A stretch of 64,000 bases of DNA, from assembly GCA_031265235.1 (NCBI GenBank), contig JAISCX010000035.1:16839-80838 (forward strand), in the 5' to 3' direction. Position 1 is the stretch's first letter, and every line of letters starts with the position of its first letter. Under the pieces are notes generated by a model. It was not told the origin of the DNA. It did no database searches and saw only the letters and a list, made by a program, of their open reading frames with translations. Positions 11,426 through 62,968 of this stretch are shown piece by piece. The translations under genes were made by a program, and so were the position numbers. Source of the stretch: Rickettsiales bacterium. GTDB lineage: Bacteria > Pseudomonadota > Alphaproteobacteria > Rs-D84.

Positions 11426-11965
<540 letters not shown>

Positions 11966-12015
11966 TTGGGATTCCAGCCCAGGCCCGGAATGACACGGTA
12001 AGAAAGAAGGATATG

Positions 12016-13164
12016 TTTATGAAAAAACTATTGGCCGTCAGCTGTTTTCTATGGGCTTTGCCCGCATTGGCGGCGGACCCGGCTTTTACCAATCTATCGG
12101 TCAAAAATCGTATTCTGAATATCATTGGTTCTGATTTTCCTTATTCGCCGATTTCATCGTATGTTACAAGCGACCGCCTTTTGCATTTGGACGCTATTGA
12201 CAACACAGGCGCCGGCGATATGAATCATTCATATGCCACGACCACTTGGACCGATTTGTCCGGCAACGCCAACAATATTTCAGGTATGGTCGGAATCCTG
12301 AATTGGTCTGTGCAAAGTCTGAAAATCGGCGGCAGCGACGGGATTATTTACGCGCCGACAATCAAACTGCAACCGCAATACGACGATGGCAAAACTCTCA
12401 CAAAAATGACTTACGAGTATATTTTCAGTGGAAATTCGTATATCGCAAATGCAGGAATAAACAGTATTGACACCGACCCCTTTGACAAAAGCATCAACAA
12501 TTGTTTCTGGAAACAAACGTCCAATTCCGGCGGCAATATTACTTGGCAATGGACGGACAAGGGAAATATCCGCCGGGCAACCGTATCTATTCCGGATGAT
12601 GGAAAAATTCACGCGGTATCGGTAAGTCTTGATATGACGGTGCAGACCAACGGATTATTAAAGTTTTATGTAGACGGGGTCTATCAAACCAGCGCTTCCA
12701 CCAATAGCAACACCGGATATTCCAGCGGATTTACTTTGGGCAGAAGTTTCCAAGACGATTTTCCCGCCCCGAACGTAAAGCTGCACAGTGTCAGAATTTA
12801 TAATACAAATCTGACCGACGCCCAATTGATGAATAATTTTACAGTGGATTCTATACGGTTTCTGGCCCCGCCGGTAATAAAAATCGGAAATGCCGTTTGC
12901 GGCGAAGTTTCTGTTTTATCATCCGGCGCGATAAGTTGCATGGTGCCGGCATCCGTTGTGGCCGGCGAGTACGAGGTTACTTATACCGAAAACGGAACAG
13001 TGTTTACGGTCGGAAAATGCACTTATGACGGGCAGAATTGCATAGATGTGAATTTTAATTATAGCAACATTGCAAAGTCCGGAAAGCTGATGAAAGCAAT
13101 TTATCGTGGCGGCAGCAAAGTCAAGGCGGTGTTCAAAAACGGGGTCCAAATATTTTCTGAATAA
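12016..13164 (+). CDS. secreted LamG/concanavalin-A-like lectin domain protein
   Basis: Signal MFMKKLLAVSCFLWALPALA with an AAGAAGGA RBS. The block FTLGRSF...KLHSVRIYNTNLTDAQL is typical of LamG jelly-roll domains. Confidence 0.6.
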   Translation, partial: FMKKLLAVSCFLWALPALAADPAFTNLSVKNRILNIIGSDFPYSPISSYVTSDRLLHLDAIDNTGAGDMNHSYATTTWTDLSGNANNISGMVGILNWSVQSLKIGGSDGIIYAPTIKLQPQYDDGKTLTKMTYEYIFSGNSYIANAGINSIDTDPFDKSINNCFWKQTSNSGGNITWQWTDKGNIRRATVSIPDDGKIHAVSVSLDMTVQTNGLLKFYVDGVYQTSASTNSNTGYSSGFTLGRSFQDDFPAPNVKLHSVRIYNTNLTDAQLMNNFTVDSIRFLAPPVIKIGNAVCGEVSVLSSGAISCMVPASVVAGEYEVTYTENGTVFTVGKCTYDGQNCIDVNFNYSNIAKSGKLMKAIYRGGSKVKAVFKNGVQIFSE

Positions 13165-13230: not shown

Positions 13231-13258
13231 TTGATTTTTGCGCGCGGGTCTGTATAAT
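13231..13258 (+). promoter_or_regulatory. sigma70-like promoter for tRNA-Thr (TTGATT-16-TATAAT)
   Basis: ttgatt at 13231-13236 and tataat at 13253-13258, about 12 nt before the tRNA 5' end. Confidence 0.5.
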
Positions 13259-13269
13259 GGCCCCCAACA

Positions 13270-13343
13270 GCCCGCATAGTATAATGGTAGAACAGGTCCT
13301 TGGTAAGGACCAGGCGCAAGTCCGATTCTTGCTGCGGGCACCA
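13270..13343 (+). tRNA. tRNA-Thr (anticodon GGT)
   Basis: Acceptor stem GCCCGCA/TGCGGGC, anticodon stem GGTCC/GGACC with loop TTGGTAA and T-arm GCAAG-TCCGATT-CTTGC. Discriminator A and an encoded CCA. One A-A mismatch in the D stem. Confidence 0.85.
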
Positions 13344-13396: not shown

Positions 13397-13424
13397 TTGA
13401 TTTTTGATTTCCGTCGTATATAAT
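13397..13424 (+). promoter_or_regulatory. sigma70-like promoter for aspS leader (TTGATT-16-TATAAT)
   Basis: ttgatt at 13397-13402 and tataat at 13419-13424. Confidence 0.45.
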
Positions 13425-13436
13425 TGGCATTACAAA

Positions 13437-13655
13437 GCCGGCGAGGTGCAAACAACACTTAGGCGAAAGAAGAACGGCGCATTGCGCGCTTATTAGAACT
13501 TTCCGGGGATGCCCGTTACAGCAGAGAATTTCTTTAATGGTGGTCAATCCAGCGAGAGATAAAGGCGGCAATGGCGACATTATCGCAAAGCAAGGTGGCA
13601 CCGCGTCGCTATCAGACGCCCTTGCATAATGATTTTTCAGACAAAGGATGCCAAA
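13437..13655 (+). promoter_or_regulatory. candidate T-box leader of aspS (~220-nt 5' UTR)
   Basis: AAGCAAGGTGGCACCGCG (13588-13605) matches the T-box consensus AANNNGGGUGGNACCGCG with a UGGC bulge. CCGTTA, an F-box-like element, lies at 13513-18. A possible antiterminator is GCAAGG[UGGCACC]GCGUC-loop-GACGCCCUUGC. Confidence 0.4.
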
Positions 13656-15407
13656 ATGAAGCCAAATATTTACAGATCCCACACCTGCGGCGAATTGTCC
13701 GCAAATGACGTCGGCACATCCGTGAAGCTTTCCGGATGGGTGCACCGCAAGCGCGACCATGGCGGGCTGGTGTTCGTGGATCTGCGCGACAATTACGGGA
13801 TCACCCAGATTGTTTTCGACAACGACGAGGAAATTGAAAAGGTTCGCCCGGAATCCGTAATAATGGTTTCCGGCAAAGTGATCGCGCGCGGGGCAAAGGA
13901 AACAAACCCGAAAATTTCAACCGGCGAAATCGAAGTGGCGGCGAAAGAATGGAATGTTCTGACCAGCGCGGATGTTCTGCCGATCCAGGTATTTGAAAGC
14001 GACGAACTGGCGGCGGAAGAATTGCGGCTTAGATACCGCTATATCGACTTGCGCCGCAAATCGCTGCACGACAATATATTATTTCGCAACAAAGTCATAA
14101 AATTTATGCGCGACAAGATGTGGGATTTGGGATTCTCGGAATTCCAGACACCCGTTCTGACGGTATCGTCGCCGGAAGGGGCCCGCGATTTTCTGGTGCC
14201 CAGCCGCTTTCATCACGGATGTTTTTATGCGCTGCCGCAATCGCCGCAGCAATTCAAGCAGCTTTTGCAGATATCGGGATTCGACCGGTATTTCCAGGTC
14301 GCCCCGTGTTTTCGCGATGAAGATTTGCGCAGCGACAGGCTGTTGGAGCATTATCAGCTTGATTTCGAAATGTCTTTCGTCGAATCCAAAGATATTCAGG
14401 CGGTCGGCAATGCGGTAATTTCCGCCGTGATAAAAGAATTTGTTCCGAATGCGAAGTTTTGTGATGAAATCCCGAATATCACGTATGCCGAAGCGCAATT
14501 AAAATACGGAACGGACAAGCCGGATCTGCGCAACCCGATAATCATTTCGGACGTGTCCGACATATTCCGGGACAGCGAATTCGGGATTTTTGCGGACGCT
14601 GTGAAAAACGGGTCCGCCGTCAGGGCGATACCTGCGCCCAAAACGGCGGACAAGCCGCGGTCCTGGTTTGATAAAACCGAATCTTTTGCCAAGGACGAAT
14701 TAAAGCTGGCCGGTCTGGGATATATTGTCTTTGCCGAAGAAGCCAAAGGGCCCGTCGCAAAAAAGCTGGACGTCGCGCGAATTGAAAAAATACGGGAAAT
14801 CTGCGGTCTGGCGACGGGCGATTCCGTGTTCTTTGTTTGCGACAATGAATCCGCCGCCGCCAAAGCGGCCGGCAGACTGCGCACGCGATTCGGCAACGAT
14901 CTGGGTCTGGTTGATCCCGATGAATTCAAAATGTGCTGGATAGATGATTTCCCGATGTATGAGCAGAACGAGGAAACCGGAACCATAGATTTCGGACACA
15001 ATCCGTTCACAATGCCAAAGTCGTCGCTTGACGGGGACCCGCTGAAAATCGTCGCGCATCAGTTTGACTGTGTCATGAACGGGATGGAACTGTGTTCCGG
15101 CGGTCTGCGCAATTACAATCCTGAAACGATGATAAAGGCGTTCGCAATAGCCGGATACGACGAGGACGAGGTCAAGAAAAAATTCGGCGGAATGTGGAGC
15201 GCGTTTCAATACGGCGCCCCGCCGCACGGCGGCTGTGGCTTTGGGATAGACCGGATCGTTATGATCGCCTTGAAAGAGCCAAGCATGCGCGAAGTCGTCG
15301 CATTTCCGACAAACCAGCGGGGCCAGGATCTGATGATGGGCAGCCCGGCGCCCGTGTCGGAACAGCAGCTGCGCGAAGTGCATATACAGGTTCGAAAGAA
15401 AAGCTAA
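13656..15407 (+). CDS. aspS: aspartyl-tRNA synthetase
   Basis: Start MKPNIYRSHTCGEL. Class II motifs include FRDEDLRSDRLLEHYQLDFEMSF and GGCGFGIDRIVM. Confidence 0.95.
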   Translation: MKPNIYRSHTCGELSANDVGTSVKLSGWVHRKRDHGGLVFVDLRDNYGITQIVFDNDEEIEKVRPESVIMVSGKVIARGAKETNPKISTGEIEVAAKEWNVLTSADVLPIQVFESDELAAEELRLRYRYIDLRRKSLHDNILFRNKVIKFMRDKMWDLGFSEFQTPVLTVSSPEGARDFLVPSRFHHGCFYALPQSPQQFKQLLQISGFDRYFQVAPCFRDEDLRSDRLLEHYQLDFEMSFVESKDIQAVGNAVISAVIKEFVPNAKFCDEIPNITYAEAQLKYGTDKPDLRNPIIISDVSDIFRDSEFGIFADAVKNGSAVRAIPAPKTADKPRSWFDKTESFAKDELKLAGLGYIVFAEEAKGPVAKKLDVARIEKIREICGLATGDSVFFVCDNESAAAKAAGRLRTRFGNDLGLVDPDEFKMCWIDDFPMYEQNEETGTIDFGHNPFTMPKSSLDGDPLKIVAHQFDCVMNGMELCSGGLRNYNPETMIKAFAIAGYDEDEVKKKFGGMWSAFQYGAPPHGGCGFGIDRIVMIALKEPSMREVVAFPTNQRGQDLMMGSPAPVSEQQLREVHIQVRKKS

Positions 15408-24092: not shown

Positions 24093-24722
24093 TTATTGCG
24101 GCAGCAACGATTGAACGGCAATCGCAAAGTCCGGCGCATTGGCCAGATAATTGCCGCTTACCAGAAAATCCGCGCCGGCGCGCCAGCATGCGGCCGCGGT
24201 ATCCGGGTTTATTCCGCCGTCCACGCTTATTTTGAATCCAAGGCCATACCTTTTGCGCGTGTTGTTCAATGCGAATATGCGGCCCAAAGCGGCGGCCAGG
24301 AATTCCTGGCCGCCCGCGCCGGGCACGACCGACATTACGAGTATCTCGTCAATCTCGCGCAGTATCGGCTTTAATATTTCGATCGGTGTTTCCGGATGCA
24401 GCGCGATTCCGGCGCGTTTGCCCCGCCGCTTGATTTCCGCGATCGCTTTCCGGACGCCCGCTGTTCCCGTTGAAAGTATTATCGTGTCCGCGCCTGCGTC
24501 CGCCGCCTGTCCCGCCCAGGATTCCGGGCTTTCAGTCATCAGATGCACATGCAGGTGCGCTTTCGTATGTTCGCGGATAAATTTCAATTCATCAATTCCG
24601 CCGGACACCGTGTCCACATAGAATCCGTCCATTATATCAACGTGAATCATAGAAACGCCGCCTGATTGAAAACGTGCGTATGTCGCGGGATCGCGCATGT
24701 TGAACGCAAGCGTGCTGGGCAT
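24093..24722 (-). CDS. rpe: ribulose-phosphate 3-epimerase (in the same reading frame as, and continuous with, upstream ftsA)
   Basis: Contains MIHVDIMDG, VMSVVPGAGGQEF and ISVDGGIN. Its ATG at 24722 overlaps an out-of-frame TAA (TAATG). Confidence 0.8.
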   Translation of the reverse strand: MPSTLAFNMRDPATYARFQSGGVSMIHVDIMDGFYVDTVSGGIDELKFIREHTKAHLHVHLMTESPESWAGQAADAGADTIILSTGTAGVRKAIAEIKRRGKRAGIALHPETPIEILKPILREIDEILVMSVVPGAGGQEFLAAALGRIFALNNTRKRYGLGFKISVDGGINPDTAAACWRAGADFLVSGNYLANAPDFAIAVQSLLPQ

Positions 24723-25880
24723 TATCGGGATAAATCTTTGTTTTTTCTTTTTCGGGAAAAGCTTTGAGAATGCGGATATGATTTTTGACAAGGCTTTTTC
24801 GCGGCGGTCGGATCGCGCCGCATATGTTCTGGCGAGCGGTTCCATCTGTTTCCAAATATATGATGCGTTCGCTTGGACCGCGGCTGCGGGACCGATGTTT
24901 TTGACGGGAATTCCGAACATGTTTGATACAAAATCGTCTATGCCCGTGATGTTCGCGCCGCCGCCGGACAGATATATTCGGACGGGCGCGTATTTTTGAA
25001 TCGCATTTTTTGTGGCATCGAACGCCGCCTGCAAGATTTCGGAAAGCACCGGAATCGCGATATCGTTCACGTCGCCTTTGGAAAAATCATGTTTGGAACT
25101 GGCCGGCGTAAACCTGTCCATATCGCCGCCGGATAGGGATATGTTCTCGCGTTTTATCTTTTCCGCAGCGTTGAAGGACAAATCAAGCCCGCTGGCGACG
25201 GAGTCGGTTATCGATGACTGCGCGTTCGGTATTTTTTTATAAAAAACCGGCCCCCTGCTTGTCCAAACCGACACGGACGTATGGCTTGCCCCAAGGTCCA
25301 GTAATACAGCCGGCTCTTTTTTTGGGCGCATTGTGCATGCGATTAAAAACGCCGGATCAAAAAAATCGCGCCCCATGATGTGCGCGGCGCGCGCGGCGCC
25401 GCGCACATCATTTATCCCGTCGGCATCATAGGCGATCGCGCCAAATGCCGCGGAAACATGCGTATCCGAAAGACCAACCGGCGTCGTGATATTTTGCAGT
25501 TCAAGCAGATCATAGCGCAGCGGAATTATATGCATCGGCGCGAAATAGGGCGATATTTCGGGAATTTCCGAAATCAAAGCATCAATATCGGCGTCCGATA
25601 TTTTATGTTCTTTGATCCAGTCTTTCTTTCTGACAAGCAAGATATATTCCAATGCGCCGAAATTTCCGGTGACATATGCGGAATCAAAGCGCGCGCCGAT
25701 GTCTGATTCTATCGCGTCGACGACAGTCCGGACCCCGGCGCCCGTATCGAACGATTCGCATGCGCGGATGGCGGATTTTGCAATGCGTCCGGACACTATG
25801 CGGAACCCTATCCCGCGAACCGCGGTTGTGCCGATGTCAAGACATAGAAAAGAGTTGTCGAATAAATTCATAATCAGCAA
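24723..25880 (-). CDS. ftsA: cell division protein FtsA (no in-frame stop; reads through into rpe as a 595-aa fusion ORF)
   Basis: Actin-fold motifs LCLDIGTTAVRG, LLDLGASHTSVSVW and IYLSGGGANITG. The C-terminal amphipathic segment is ALSKIISAFSKLFPKKKK. The gene lies downstream of ftsQ as in the dcw cluster. Confidence 0.75.
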
Positions 25881-60809: not shown

Positions 60810-62096
60810 TCAGTTTTTCGCCCCAATGCGTGTTCGTCCGCCCATCAGTGGTTGCAGTGCCTTTGGGATGCTCACACTGCCGTCCGCGTTCTGATGGTTT
60901 TCAATAATAAACGCCAATGCGCGCGGCAGTGCAATCGCGGTATTGTTCAGGGTCGCGCAAAATTTAACCTCGTTCGTGCCATTTTCGCGATAGCGGGTCA
61001 TCGTGCGCCGCGCTTGAAATTCGCCGATTGCGCTGCAGCTGCCGGCTTCGCCCCATCTGTCTTGTCCCGGCATCAAGACCTCTACATCGTGCATTTTTAT
61101 CTTGTTGAATCCCATGTCGCCCGTGCTGGTCGCTATGACGCGGTTCGGCAATTCCATATCCGATAGAATCTCGCACAGGTTTCCCAGCATGTAATCGAAC
61201 ATCTCGTCGCTCTGTTCCGGTTTGCAATAAACGTATTGTTCAACTTTGTGGAATTCATGTATCCGGTAAAGTCCGCGGGTATCGCGGCCCGCCGCGCCCG
61301 CTTCTTTCCGAAAGCAATGCGAATATCCCGCGTATTTGATTGGCAGCGCATCTTCGGCCATGATTTCATTCGCGTGCAGCTTGTTCAGGGTAATCTCTGC
61401 GGTTCCGGCAAGGCTGCGGTCGGTATCTTCCAGCATGAATACGTCATTGTTCATTACTGATAAATCGCTGCCCAGAAAATGTCCCGCATCAAAAACGCTT
61501 TGCGGTTTTGTGATTGCAGGGACATGGATATAGGAAAATCCCTTTGCGATCATTTTTTGCGTAACAAACGCCCGTATCGCATCATCAAGCTCTGCCGCTT
61601 CTCCTATCAGACAGTAAGTGCGGCTGCCGCATATGTCCGCAATCTTTTCCGGCATCCACCATCCGTTCATGTCCAGAATATCCCAATGCGGCCGCGGCGT
61701 GAAATCAAAATCGCGGATGTTTCCCATTCGGCGAAGCTCTATATTCGCGTCGGAATCGGCGCCTATCGGTTCCGTTGTGGCCGGGATTTGCGGGACACGA
61801 TGAAGCAGGTCGTTCAGGATTGCTTCTTTATCTGTCAATTCCGCCATCTCGGAAGCCAATTCAGCATTCACGCGTTTTGATTCGTTTATATATCCCATGC
61901 GGGCGGACGGATTCGCACCCGGAATCTTTGCAGTGATTTTATTTTTATACGCGGTTTTCGTTTGCGTCGTTGTTTTCAGCTCGCGCACGCGAATGTCCAG
62001 CGCAATTATTTCGTCTGTCCGGTCTGCAAAGCCCTTGACCTCGCACGCCCATTTTACTTTTTCGGGATTTTCCCGAATGAATTTTATATCCAGCAT
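60810..62096 (-). CDS. serS: seryl-tRNA synthetase
   Basis: MLDIKFIRENPE with an N-terminal coiled coil and class II motifs (FRKEAGAAGRDTRGLYRIHEFHKVEQ). Confidence 0.95.
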   Translation of the reverse strand: MLDIKFIRENPEKVKWACEVKGFADRTDEIIALDIRVRELKTTTQTKTAYKNKITAKIPGANPSARMGYINESKRVNAELASEMAELTDKEAILNDLLHRVPQIPATTEPIGADSDANIELRRMGNIRDFDFTPRPHWDILDMNGWWMPEKIADICGSRTYCLIGEAAELDDAIRAFVTQKMIAKGFSYIHVPAITKPQSVFDAGHFLGSDLSVMNNDVFMLEDTDRSLAGTAEITLNKLHANEIMAEDALPIKYAGYSHCFRKEAGAAGRDTRGLYRIHEFHKVEQYVYCKPEQSDEMFDYMLGNLCEILSDMELPNRVIATSTGDMGFNKIKMHDVEVLMPGQDRWGEAGSCSAIGEFQARRTMTRYRENGTNEVKFCATLNNTAIALPRALAFIIENHQNADGSVSIPKALQPLMGGRTRIGAKN

Positions 62097-62298
62097 TGTT
62101 TTGCCTTTGTATTATTTCGAAACAAATATTGATTTTAATTATTATAATGTCTGCGAAAGAATTCGCAAATAAAAATTATTCCCCCAAAGGGGACGAAGAA
62201 GAGCAGGATGACAAATGGTTCATAACGAATGGTCTAAACATGTTTTACATTTTATAAAATATGACCGGAAAGTCAAATAAATTTTAGGTTGTCGATTT

Positions 62299-62850
62299 TT
62301 ACGCGACGGCGGCAAGCGGCAGTTGTGTCGTCGCCATCTCGTCGTTGAATAATGCGGGTTGTGCCGCGACGCCCCGTTCGAACGATTTTACGAACAAGTA
62401 ATCGCTAAGTCTGTTGAAATACTGGACCATCGGCGCGATGTCGGACAGGGGCATATAACGTTCTTCATCTATCAGCGCGCGTTCGCTTTCCGCAAATTCC
62501 ACGATGCGGCGTTCTGCGCGGCGGCATATCGCGCGCGCCAAAGACGCCGCGCCGCGCGGATTTACAAACCACGGCGGGATTGAATTGTTGTGTTCGGATA
62601 TGTATTCTTCCAGTGTTTCTATCTGGGCGTGCACGCGGGAAACGTCAACGGTTTTATAGTATAAATACCCCATAATCTCGGATAAAAACGTCTGGATGGC
62701 GTCAAACCGTCCGCCGTCCATGCCCAGCGCGCAGGACAGTTCGTCAACCTCGCCCATGATCCATATCACCGGATGCGTTTTTGACGCGATCCGGTCCGGA
62801 TTCAACTGGGTCATCCCCTGGTCGCCATTCTTTGTTGTTATCTGTGCCAT
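62299..62850 (-). CDS. ATP:cob(I)alamin adenosyltransferase, PduO-type
   Basis: ITTKNGDQGMTQL...IWIMGEVDELSCALG matches Cob_adeno_trans (TGDKGxTSL...GxVDELNxxIG). Confidence 0.8.
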   Translation of the reverse strand: MAQITTKNGDQGMTQLNPDRIASKTHPVIWIMGEVDELSCALGMDGGRFDAIQTFLSEIMGYLYYKTVDVSRVHAQIETLEEYISEHNNSIPPWFVNPRGAASLARAICRRAERRIVEFAESERALIDEERYMPLSDIAPMVQYFNRLSDYLFVKSFERGVAAQPALFNDEMATTQLPLAAVA

Positions 62851-62874
62851 TGCAAAAATCTTTCTTGTTTTTTA

Positions 62875-62968
62875 GTGTAAGTGACAGTGTAAGTGCAAGT
62901 GGTTTAGATTATAATATAAAGCTTGTCCATAATCCGAACCGCTTGCACTTACACTGTCCTTACACTTA
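62875..62968. repeat. palindromic element (gtgtaagtgacagtgtaagtgcaagtgg ... cgcttgcacttacactgtccttacactta)
   Basis: 28-nt inverted arms around an AT-rich core. Related motifs are gtgtaagcgcaagtgacaag at 26652 and agagtaagagg.../...cctactctt at 41221-41293. Confidence 0.6.

Follow-up and report, generated by a model that had tools for sequence, protein, structure and literature searches.

The 64,000-nt stretch of a Rickettsiales bacterium genome analyzed here (contig JAISCX010000035.1; hereafter the window) contains, at 13656-15407 on the + strand, the gene aspS, which encodes a bacterial-type aspartyl-tRNA synthetase (AspRS) of 583 aa (NCBIfam NF001750, 753 bits); the product is 100% identical to P0001, titled 'MAG: aspartate--tRNA ligase [Rickettsiales bacterium]'. 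The start of the gene was placed at ATG 13656, in agreement with the NCBI annotation of P0001 and with the N-termini of homologues. A sigma-70-type promoter with 10 of 12 consensus matches (TTGATT-16-TATAAT, 13397-13424, +) is located upstream, as a first-pass annotation of the window had proposed, and the transcript is predicted to start at ~13431, immediately 5' of Stem I of a leader that occupies 13437-13655. In that annotation the leader was taken for a candidate T-box riboswitch. T-boxes are regarded as Gram-positive regulators, and the host of this one groups with the order Rs-D84/'Candidatus Enterousia', uncultured gut Alphaproteobacteria with reduced genomes. Enterousia is placed in the GTDB order Rs-D84, with genomes of <1 Mbp that lack amino-acid biosynthesis (PMC12306168). 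The analysis indicates, with a probability of roughly 0.7, that the leader is a functional, translational T-box with an ultrashort Stem I, which regulates the bacterial-type aspS gene and reads tRNA-Asn. The estimate applies to these parts jointly: there is hardly any doubt about the T-box identity itself, and tRNA-Asn as the ligand and translation as the level of control are each probable.

The 18-mer AAGCAAGGTGGCACCGCG, put forward in the first-pass annotation as the T-box sequence, was found as an exact match at 13588-13605 and occurs only once in the window. When the consensus AANNNRGGTGGNACCGCG was searched with at most one mismatch, these positions were again the sole match in the window, with 0.05 expected per shuffled window; the conserved T-box sequence AANNNGGGUGGNACCGCG is represented there by AAGCAAGGUGGCACCGCG, on the 5' side of the antiterminator/antisequestrator. 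The one departure from consensus within the 18-mer (G to A in GGG) is compensated by a U in CCUUGC. T-box sequence and discriminator (antisequestrator) together occupy 13588-13625 (+; Rfam, folding and covariation). Helix A1 is formed by GCAAGG 13590-95 with CCUUGC 13620-25 and helix A2 by GCGUC 13603-07 with GACGC 13615-19; the two are separated by a 7-nt bulge, UGGCACC (13596-602), and A2 is closed by a loop, GCUAUCA (13608-14), so that the antiterminator folds at 13590-13625 as it had been drawn. The UGGC of the bulge is complementary to the 3' GCCA of a tRNA and could pair with it. An F-box-like CCGTTA, also part of the first-pass proposal, lies at 13513-13518, 70 nt before the 18-mer, and is aligned to the F-box by the Rfam T-box model RF00230. 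The core of the element is conserved in the aspS leaders of relatives, being invariant across about 60 loci: of 45 genome loci from related Alphaproteobacteria, 43 have the 12-mer GGTGGCACCGCG unchanged before aspS, as do the metagenome loci, and it is absent from Lentisphaeria and Stellaceae-type outgroups. Apart from one core per aspS locus and one on the minus strand of locus L060, hereafter L060(-), no further T-box core was found in the 582 kb examined.

With RF00230, in a search limited to 381 nt, to which the E value refers, the leader was aligned from 13432 to 13626 along model positions 1-219 (36.4 bits, E = 1.1e-6). The search that the first-pass annotation had called for thus gave a full-length match, with a score below the gathering score of 93, and a scan of the whole window with Rfam at the gathering threshold returned two tRNAs only and no T-box. 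The alignment places the kink-turn (K-turn), Stem II, the F-box, Stem III and the T-box/antiterminator correctly and drops 78 model positions of distal Stem I, with a 7-nt loop instead. The low score is due to this deletion together with insertions, that is, to a different architecture and not to a poor match. Minimal T-boxes of relatives, described below, reach 27.8 bits with the Rfam T-box model, and a permissive scan of the whole L060 locus gave nothing at E <= 0.01, the element emerging only from searches of short stretches. A profile built with nhmmer from three leaders of non-discriminating AspRS (ND-AspRS) genes, the window being excluded, matches 13434-13602 with E = 1.7e-34 and has no other match in the 64-kb window and none in loci of the minimal type. 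The sensing domain of the window is 75-79% identical to those of the ND-AspRS leaders in pairwise comparison. The only other synthetase gene of the window, serS (60810-62096, minus strand), has a leader of ~200 nt (62097-62300) that carries no T-box; control of this type is therefore not general to the synthetase genes of this genome.

An ultrashort Stem I, a Stem II domain, a IIA/B pseudoknot and an F-box are all present in the window, which makes the element a class II T-box. In this class the specifier is located in the apical loop, Stem II is essential when Stem I is truncated, the F-box CCGUCA lies inside a pseudoknot and critical purines, the 'GAG linker', occur 5' of Stem III (PMC7583486; PMC12647780). 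Stem I (13437-13464; Rfam alignment, RNAalifold and pair counts), on the + strand like all parts that follow, opens with a C-helix of 13437-39 with 13462-64, which covaries (C-G in the window, A-U in L060(-)). It passes through a K-turn, with the bulge GGC at 13440-42 and then GA 13443-44 opposite UA 13460-61, into an NC helix, GGUG 13445-48 with CACU 13456-59, closed by the apical loop CAAACAA (13449-55). The specifier codon AAC (Asn) was assigned by column homology to 13451-13453 and is followed by a purine, A13454; AAC had been among the triplets allowed for in the first-pass annotation. Stem II (13465-13503; RNAalifold and pair counts) has a basal helix of GAAAG 13465-69 with CUUUC 13499-503, two conserved strands, AAGAAC 13470-75 and UUAUUAGAA 13490-98, that are S-turn-like by position only, and a variable distal hairpin at 13476-89.

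The region 13504-13525 (Rfam alignment and pair counts) combines Stem IIA (CGGG 13504-07 with CCCG 13512-15), the F-box (CCGUUA, 13513-18) and pseudoknot IIB, in which the loop 13508-11 pairs with 13522-25. An extra stem follows at 13528-13560 (RNAalifold and pair counts), formed by AUUUCU 13528-33 with AGAGAU 13555-60, in a register taken for the window from reading of the sequence; it encloses a small variable hairpin and overlaps the conserved purine string AGCGAGAGAUAAAGG (13551-65) 5' of Stem III. Stem III (13565-13586; pair counts) pairs 13565-73 with 13578-86 over nine positions, eight of them paired and one a C.A mismatch, under the GNRA tetraloop GCGA (13574-77).

Covariation was evaluated in an alignment of five long-type sequences, namely the window, L060(-), L080, L081 and the more distant L085. 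In the full structure, pseudoknot included, 90.3% of cells are paired and 18 pairs show double-sided changes, versus 36-46% of cells and 2-7 pairs when the 3' partners were slid by 1-3 columns, and none of 500 shuffles attained any of the five structure measures. Stem I, the basal helix of Stem II, Stem IIA, the extra stem, Stem III and A1 were recovered by RNAalifold, with 15 of 37 pairs compensated on both sides. The strongest helices are Stem III, with six of nine pairs changed on both sides and GCGA, GUGA or GCAA as the loop across the five sequences, and the base of Stem II, with three of five pairs doubly changed (GAAAG/CUUUC, GGAAG/CUUCC, GGUGG/CCAUC). In pseudoknot IIB three of four pairs changed on both sides between L085 and the other sequences, and IIA is conserved; the extra stem has 96.9% of cells paired and two doubly changed pairs. 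A1 covaries from G-C to A-U, and A2 (GCGUC/GACGC) becomes ACGUU/AACGU in L080 and L081. The NC helix of Stem I is only 60% paired because the register of the window and L060(-) is shifted by one column through gap placement.

These results decide against a fortuitous resemblance to a T-box without RNA structure. The argument available for it comes from folding of the single sequence, where the minimum free energy (MFE) structure predicted for the complete leader differs from the T-box fold and its energy does not surpass that of shuffled sequences (z = -0.42). The full-length alignment to the model, the covariation, the homology at E = 1.7e-34 and a core invariant in about 60 loci refute it, leaving it practically no probability. 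The occurrence of a T-box in an alphaproteobacterial genome, as first proposed, is therefore supported by homology, covarying structure and a conserved core.

The triplet AAC at 13451-13453 shares its alignment column with the GAC of L085 and of >45 minimal aspS leaders, and with the AAC of the ND-AspRS leaders L060(-), L080 and L081, and no GAC or GAU occurs in the loop CAAACAA or exposed elsewhere in Stem I. The probable ligand is therefore tRNA-Asn and not tRNA-Asp. In the first-pass annotation the UGGC bulge had been assigned to G73 of tRNA-Asp; the bulge is present, and it is the tRNA that probably has to be replaced. In general both tRNA-Asn and tRNA-Asp carry G73 and would be compatible with UGGC. 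A T-box that senses tRNA-Asp by way of a non-canonical or displaced specifier would suit the gene, which is aspS, the GAC found in nearly all aspS leaders of relatives and, equally well, the bulge; it is nevertheless very unlikely, given a Stem I that exposes neither GAC nor GAU, a loop that shares its alignment columns with the AAC loops found before ND-AspRS genes, and a sensing domain 75-79% identical to that of the same leaders. Two other triplets, ACA and CAA, are common to all AAC-type loops. CAA fits less well, as a pyrimidine comes next, against the purine rule, and ACA (Thr) fits poorly, as the tRNA-Thr of the window has A73 and UGGC calls for G73.

In most Alphaproteobacteria AspRS also charges tRNA-Asn for GatCAB. 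An Asn specifier in front of aspS would be sensible, and AAC would be the gene-matching codon, if the AspRS of the window does the same; we infer that this bacterial-type enzyme is non-discriminating. Across the related leaders, a Stem II domain goes with AAC, whose helix with the anticodon would contain a single G-C pair, and is missing where the specifier is GAC, with two such pairs. Two leaders depart from this pattern: L085 has Stem II together with GAC, and L018 has AAC although its leader is minimal.

No clean intrinsic terminator had been seen in the first-pass annotation, and a + strand scan from the T-box to the start codon likewise returned none. The expression platform at 13644-13658 (+; free-ensemble MFE and duplex energy) comprises a Shine-Dalgarno (SD) sequence, AAGGA 13644-48, then UGCCA 13649-53 and the start codon AUG 13656-58. 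In the free MFE structure CCUU, from the 3' strand of A1, is base-paired to AAGG of the SD, and UGGCA, from the bulge, to UGCCA, which lies between SD and AUG; GG-A-UGCCA is able to pair with the entire bulge UGGCACC. Predicted SD accessibility increases from 0.34 in the free leader to 0.72 with the discriminator locked. This change is not used alone as evidence, since 92 of 1000 spacer shuffles reach it. Stronger evidence comes from the duplex of the last 25 nt before AUG with the bulge UGGCACC, whose -9.0 kcal/mol is attained by 11 of 2000 shuffles. The same complementarity was found in short aspS leaders (0 of 2000 shuffles each for the plus-strand leader of L060, L037 and L021; 3 of 2000 for L087) and is absent from ND-AspRS leaders, where 615-921 of 2000 shuffles do as well.

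The ND-AspRS leaders L080-L082 carry a clear classical sequestrator, in which CCUUGUGUUC, made up of the 3' strand of A1 and the bases after it, pairs with GAACACAA(A)GG, running into the SD GGAGG. Its advantage in stability over the locked discriminator is 7.5-10 kcal/mol, and SD accessibility rises from 0.22 to 0.71-0.77. Only the CCUU/AAGG part of this helix is kept in the window. L085 has instead an intrinsic terminator, GGGCCCUUGC...GCGAGGGCC followed by UUUUU, so that this T-box lineage includes both kinds of read-out. Known T-boxes act for the most part on transcription, and a U5 run 8 nt past the discriminator (13633-13637) might be taken with L085 as a sign that the window element ends transcription as well, through a terminator that was not recognized or a Rho-dependent one. 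We regard this as highly improbable: no G+C-rich hairpin precedes the U-run, the + strand scan found no terminator, homologues of the same clade carry SD sequestrators and not terminators, and many relatives have the T-box immediately behind a tRNA-Thr gene of the same orientation. Transcriptional attenuation was therefore rejected as the principal interpretation for lack of a + strand terminator, and translational control by masking of the SD is probable. Control like that of actinobacterial ileS, as the first-pass annotation had suggested, would be the simplest interpretation of a class II design in which no terminator is present.

In the mechanism proposed for the window, the apical loop of Stem I would offer AAC to the anticodon GUU of tRNA-Asn, and the Stem II domain with the IIA/B pseudoknot would stabilize the weak helix between codon and anticodon, as it does in the ileS T-boxes of Actinobacteria. 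The free 3' GCCA of an uncharged tRNA would pair with UGGC of the bulge and lock A1 and A2. Without uncharged tRNA, CCUU of A1 and UGGCA of the bulge would pair with AAGG-A-UGCCA, hiding the ribosome-binding site 7 nt before AUG. A rise in uncharged tRNA-Asn would then free the SD and lead to more AspRS, which, in the indirect route to Asn-tRNA-Asn, would be the enzyme that charges tRNA-Asn.

Two types of T-box leader occur among the relatives. AspRS proteins 64-75% identical to that of the window come from gut genomes and metagenomes labeled 'Candidatus Enterousia', 'Rickettsiales bacterium' or 'Alphaproteobacteria bacterium'. In the long type, to which the window belongs, ~120 nt separate Stem I from the T-box sequence; long leaders with AAC in L060(-), L080, L081 and L082 precede a gene whose best match is aspartate--tRNA(Asn) ligase (NF003483), the archaeal-type ND-AspRS. 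The more distant L085 (930-1200; GCA_030604605.1) combines an archaeal-type aspS with the long architecture, a GAC specifier and the intrinsic terminator.

Most aspS loci of Rs-D84 carry instead a minimal leader of ~100 nt (L004 2786-2982 and about 40 more; L087), built of a variable basal helix, a K-turn, a helix of 3-4 bp, an apical loop, a linker and the discriminator. The K-turn is textbook-like, with a 3-nt bulge and GA opposite GA; the 3-4 bp helix covaries (GC:22, AU:14 at one pair); and the apical loop has 9 nt, aCUGACAAc, with a conserved 18-nt linker, AAGUUAUAAAU, after Stem I. No Stem II, IIA/B, Stem III or Stem I platform was found in these leaders. GAC plus a purine is the sole invariant triplet of their loop, and the position of the specifier is thereby fixed, since the next triplet varies (AAC, GAC, ACC, AAA). 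The next closest aspS relative after L001 and L003, L087 (74%), has a small GAC T-box at 1201-1330 inside an open reading frame (ORF) mis-called as 615 aa. In L018 (~2830-2850) a minimal leader reads cuAACaac where the near-identical L020 and L040 have GAC, which may be a one-base specifier switch or an assembly variant.

The longer platform of the minimal type (L004 ~2930-2982; A1 alignment columns 177-245) contains an invariant GGUGCC with three complementary partners. These are the bulge GGCACC (mean -14.1 kcal/mol), an invariant SD region, GGGACC (-9.0), and a variable element further downstream (-11.5); GGUGCC and this variable element form a local hairpin. A relay model, in which the variable element pairs with the SD, was not supported, with a median shuffle fraction of 0.14 and only 19% of leaders below 0.05. 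In this platform, locking of the antiterminator leaves the predicted SD accessibility unchanged, and neither thermodynamic modeling nor the relay model explains how the signal passes to the SD in minimal-type leaders.

Since the window has an ND-type sensing domain together with the complementarity of SD and bulge, it joins ND-type sensing to a platform of the aspS type. Discriminator and platform are too short to be assigned by identity, and it is the bulge complementarity that points to the aspS type; pairing with the bulge and a chimeric origin of the leader are suggested on this basis. A broader and more tentative proposal is that these leaders form an undescribed alphaproteobacterial T-box lineage with its own cis-mimic platform, of which the window leader is a natural chimera; taken as a whole it is possible, though doubtful. 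The SD region GG(A/U)GCC(A/G) would mimic the 3' end of tRNA (...GCCA) and pair with UGGCACC, so that the ribosome-binding site and uncharged tRNA would compete for the same seven nucleotides, and not through exchange of the antisequestrator 3' strand. The Asn-reading Stem II sensing domain of the ND-AspRS type would have been joined to the bulge-pairing platform of bacterial-type aspS, and the chimera could have arisen by recombination between near-identical cores lying back to back, as in L060-like genomes. If this is true, the relatives would show a T-box that works without the elbow-binding platform of Stem I and without Stem II.

At L060 (880-1370) two divergent T-boxes lie back to back and issue from one promoter region of 200 nt, a GAC type toward a bacterial-type aspS and a long AAC type toward an archaeal-type ND-AspRS. 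The two cores (CAAGGUGGCACCGCG) are arranged as an inverted repeat, at which recombination would exchange the sensing domains. An AT-rich insertion of ~190 nt lies within the sequestrator loop of the AAC leader.

Several observations weigh against a functional, Asn-reading, translational T-box in the window. In the K-turn the second tandem pair, of A13444 and U13460, is A.U and not A.G, those of L080 and L081 being canonical GA/GA, and pseudoknot IIB has two Watson-Crick pairs only (U10-A23 and G11-C22). The score of 36.4 bits is far under the RF00230 gathering score, and sequestration is favored by no more than 1.1 kcal/mol between the ensembles, with the change in SD accessibility matched by spacer shuffles at the frequency given above. 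No gene for tRNA-Asn or tRNA-Asp was found in the window or in 56 scanned loci, nor asnS or gatCAB among the larger ORFs that were scanned. No relative with the same combination of leader and gene was found in genomes, metagenomes and a search of 5.8 billion proteins, AspRS identities being <=75%. In L001 and L003, the closest aspS relatives, the leader has been lost and no T-box is present; the element is therefore dispensable in this lineage.

Several of these points, namely the weak sequestrator, the score below threshold and the loss in L001 and L003, together with the possibility that the leader is a recombinant of two T-box types, would also suit a relic that no longer switches and leaves aspS constitutive, and the first-pass annotation had considered that the element might be degenerate. 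Decay of this kind is unlikely: at 75-79% identity to homologues each module has been kept by compensatory substitutions, the T-box core, F-box, GNRA loop and purine string are intact, and the complementarity of SD and bulge exceeds chance (11 of 2000 shuffles) and is common to other aspS leaders. A working T-box for tRNA-Asn thus continues to be the preferred interpretation of the leader.

The surroundings of the leader provide further observations. An in-frame ATG at 13629, used in a 592-aa IMG annotation of aspS, lacks an SD and sits right after the discriminator. The 592-aa version in the window and the 615-aa Logan protein P0003 at L087 are AspRS ORFs over-extended by gene callers into T-box leaders, and AspRS gene calls that run across these leaders are a consequence for annotation. 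Upstream of aspS lies a tRNA-Thr(GGU) gene (13270-13343) with A73 and an encoded CCA. Its promoter, TTGATT-16-TATAAT at 13231-13258, resembles the aspS promoter, which is 166 nt further downstream. A tRNA-Thr gene precedes aspS across much of the clade, and in several relatives the T-box begins <=20 nt past the 3' end of a co-oriented tRNA-Thr, with no promoter between.

Elsewhere in the window, a perfect (CA)18 microsatellite (11441-11476), possibly a phase-variation tract, lies near the start of ORF 11426-11965 (+), which is followed by an ORF (11962-13164) for a Laminin_G_3/concanavalin-like protein. A near-perfect hairpin of ~93 nt (62874-62967, -55.9 kcal/mol) was found ~780 nt upstream of serS and gives spurious matches to microRNA families. 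In the ORF 24093-25880 (-), of 595 aa, an N-terminal part resembling FtsA/PilM (~47-340) is joined to a C-terminal ribulose-phosphate 3-epimerase part (385-592); the two may be fused, or else a stop or a frameshift was missed.

The significance of the element extends beyond a single gene, as a whole clade of reduced-genome, amino-acid-auxotrophic gut bacteria, Rs-D84 (PMC12306168), has T-boxes on AspRS genes, which curated models miss because the scores fall below threshold. The clade amounts to a natural design series, in which two kinds of AspRS gene occur with specifiers for Asp (GAC) and Asn (AAC), Stem II is present or missing, and a classical sequestrator stands against a bulge-pairing SD platform. 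Two questions become testable with it: how small an RNA can be and still recognize which tRNA it binds and whether that tRNA is charged, and how specificity and output modules are exchanged in evolution. In a published survey, two of 125 proteobacterial genomes had T-boxes, both Deltaproteobacteria and both on leuA (PMC2494555), and the TBDB supplement ascribes T-boxes beyond Firmicutes, Actinobacteria, Chloroflexi and Deinococcus-Thermus to horizontal transfer. No report linking T-boxes with Alphaproteobacteria or Enterousia was found in the searchable literature, unremarked hits in Rfam or TBDB being possible.

Among known systems, the actinobacterial ileS T-boxes (M. tuberculosis, M. smegmatis, N. 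farcinica) are the closest in design. They share with the window the ultrashort Stem I with its K-turn and an apical specifier followed by a purine, the Stem II domain, the IIA/B pseudoknot with its F-box (CCGUCA in N. farcinica, CCGUUA in the window), the purine-rich linker 5' of Stem III, Stem III itself, the 7-nt bulge UGGN-ACC, the absence of a terminator and an SD masked in the alternative fold, which for the window is predicted. The window differs in being alphaproteobacterial, in having AAC on aspS and not AUC on ileS, in the extra stem between pseudoknot and Stem III, in a Stem II S-turn suggested by position only, and in a short sequestrator (UGGCA/UGCCA plus CCUU/AAGG) in place of a long, much more stable hairpin on the antisequestrator 3' strand.

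The pairing of specifier and gene has its counterpart in an Asn-specific T-box on the ND-AspRS/GatCAB/AsnB operon of Clostridium acetobutylicum, reportedly described by Saad et al. in 2012 (J Biol Chem 287:20382; cited in PMC4206432). Both elements place an Asn specifier over an AspRS of the indirect Asn-tRNA-Asn pathway, a role that for the window enzyme is presumed, and the same logic recurs in L060(-), L080, L081 and L082, where an AAC T-box stands before the gene for aspartate--tRNA(Asn) ligase. The clostridial element is reportedly of the Firmicute kind, with a long Stem I and control of transcription. The window element, in contrast, is short-stemmed, lacks a terminator and precedes a bacterial-type aspS whose product is assumed to be non-discriminating.

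For the minimal leaders, comparison can be made with glyQS T-boxes, which naturally lack Stem II, a strong codon-anticodon helix making it dispensable (PMC7583486). Most Rs-D84 aspS leaders, those of the relatives and not that of the window, likewise lack Stem II, and the presence of this domain in AAC leaders and its absence from GAC leaders fit the same rationale of codon-anticodon strength. The glyQS leaders, however, retain a long Stem I and a distal platform that binds the tRNA elbow, both of which the minimal leaders lack. The minimal leaders of the relatives and the bulge-pairing platform may be new variants, and the element in the window is a member of a known translational T-box class, found in an unexpected phylum and with an unusual pairing of specifier and gene.

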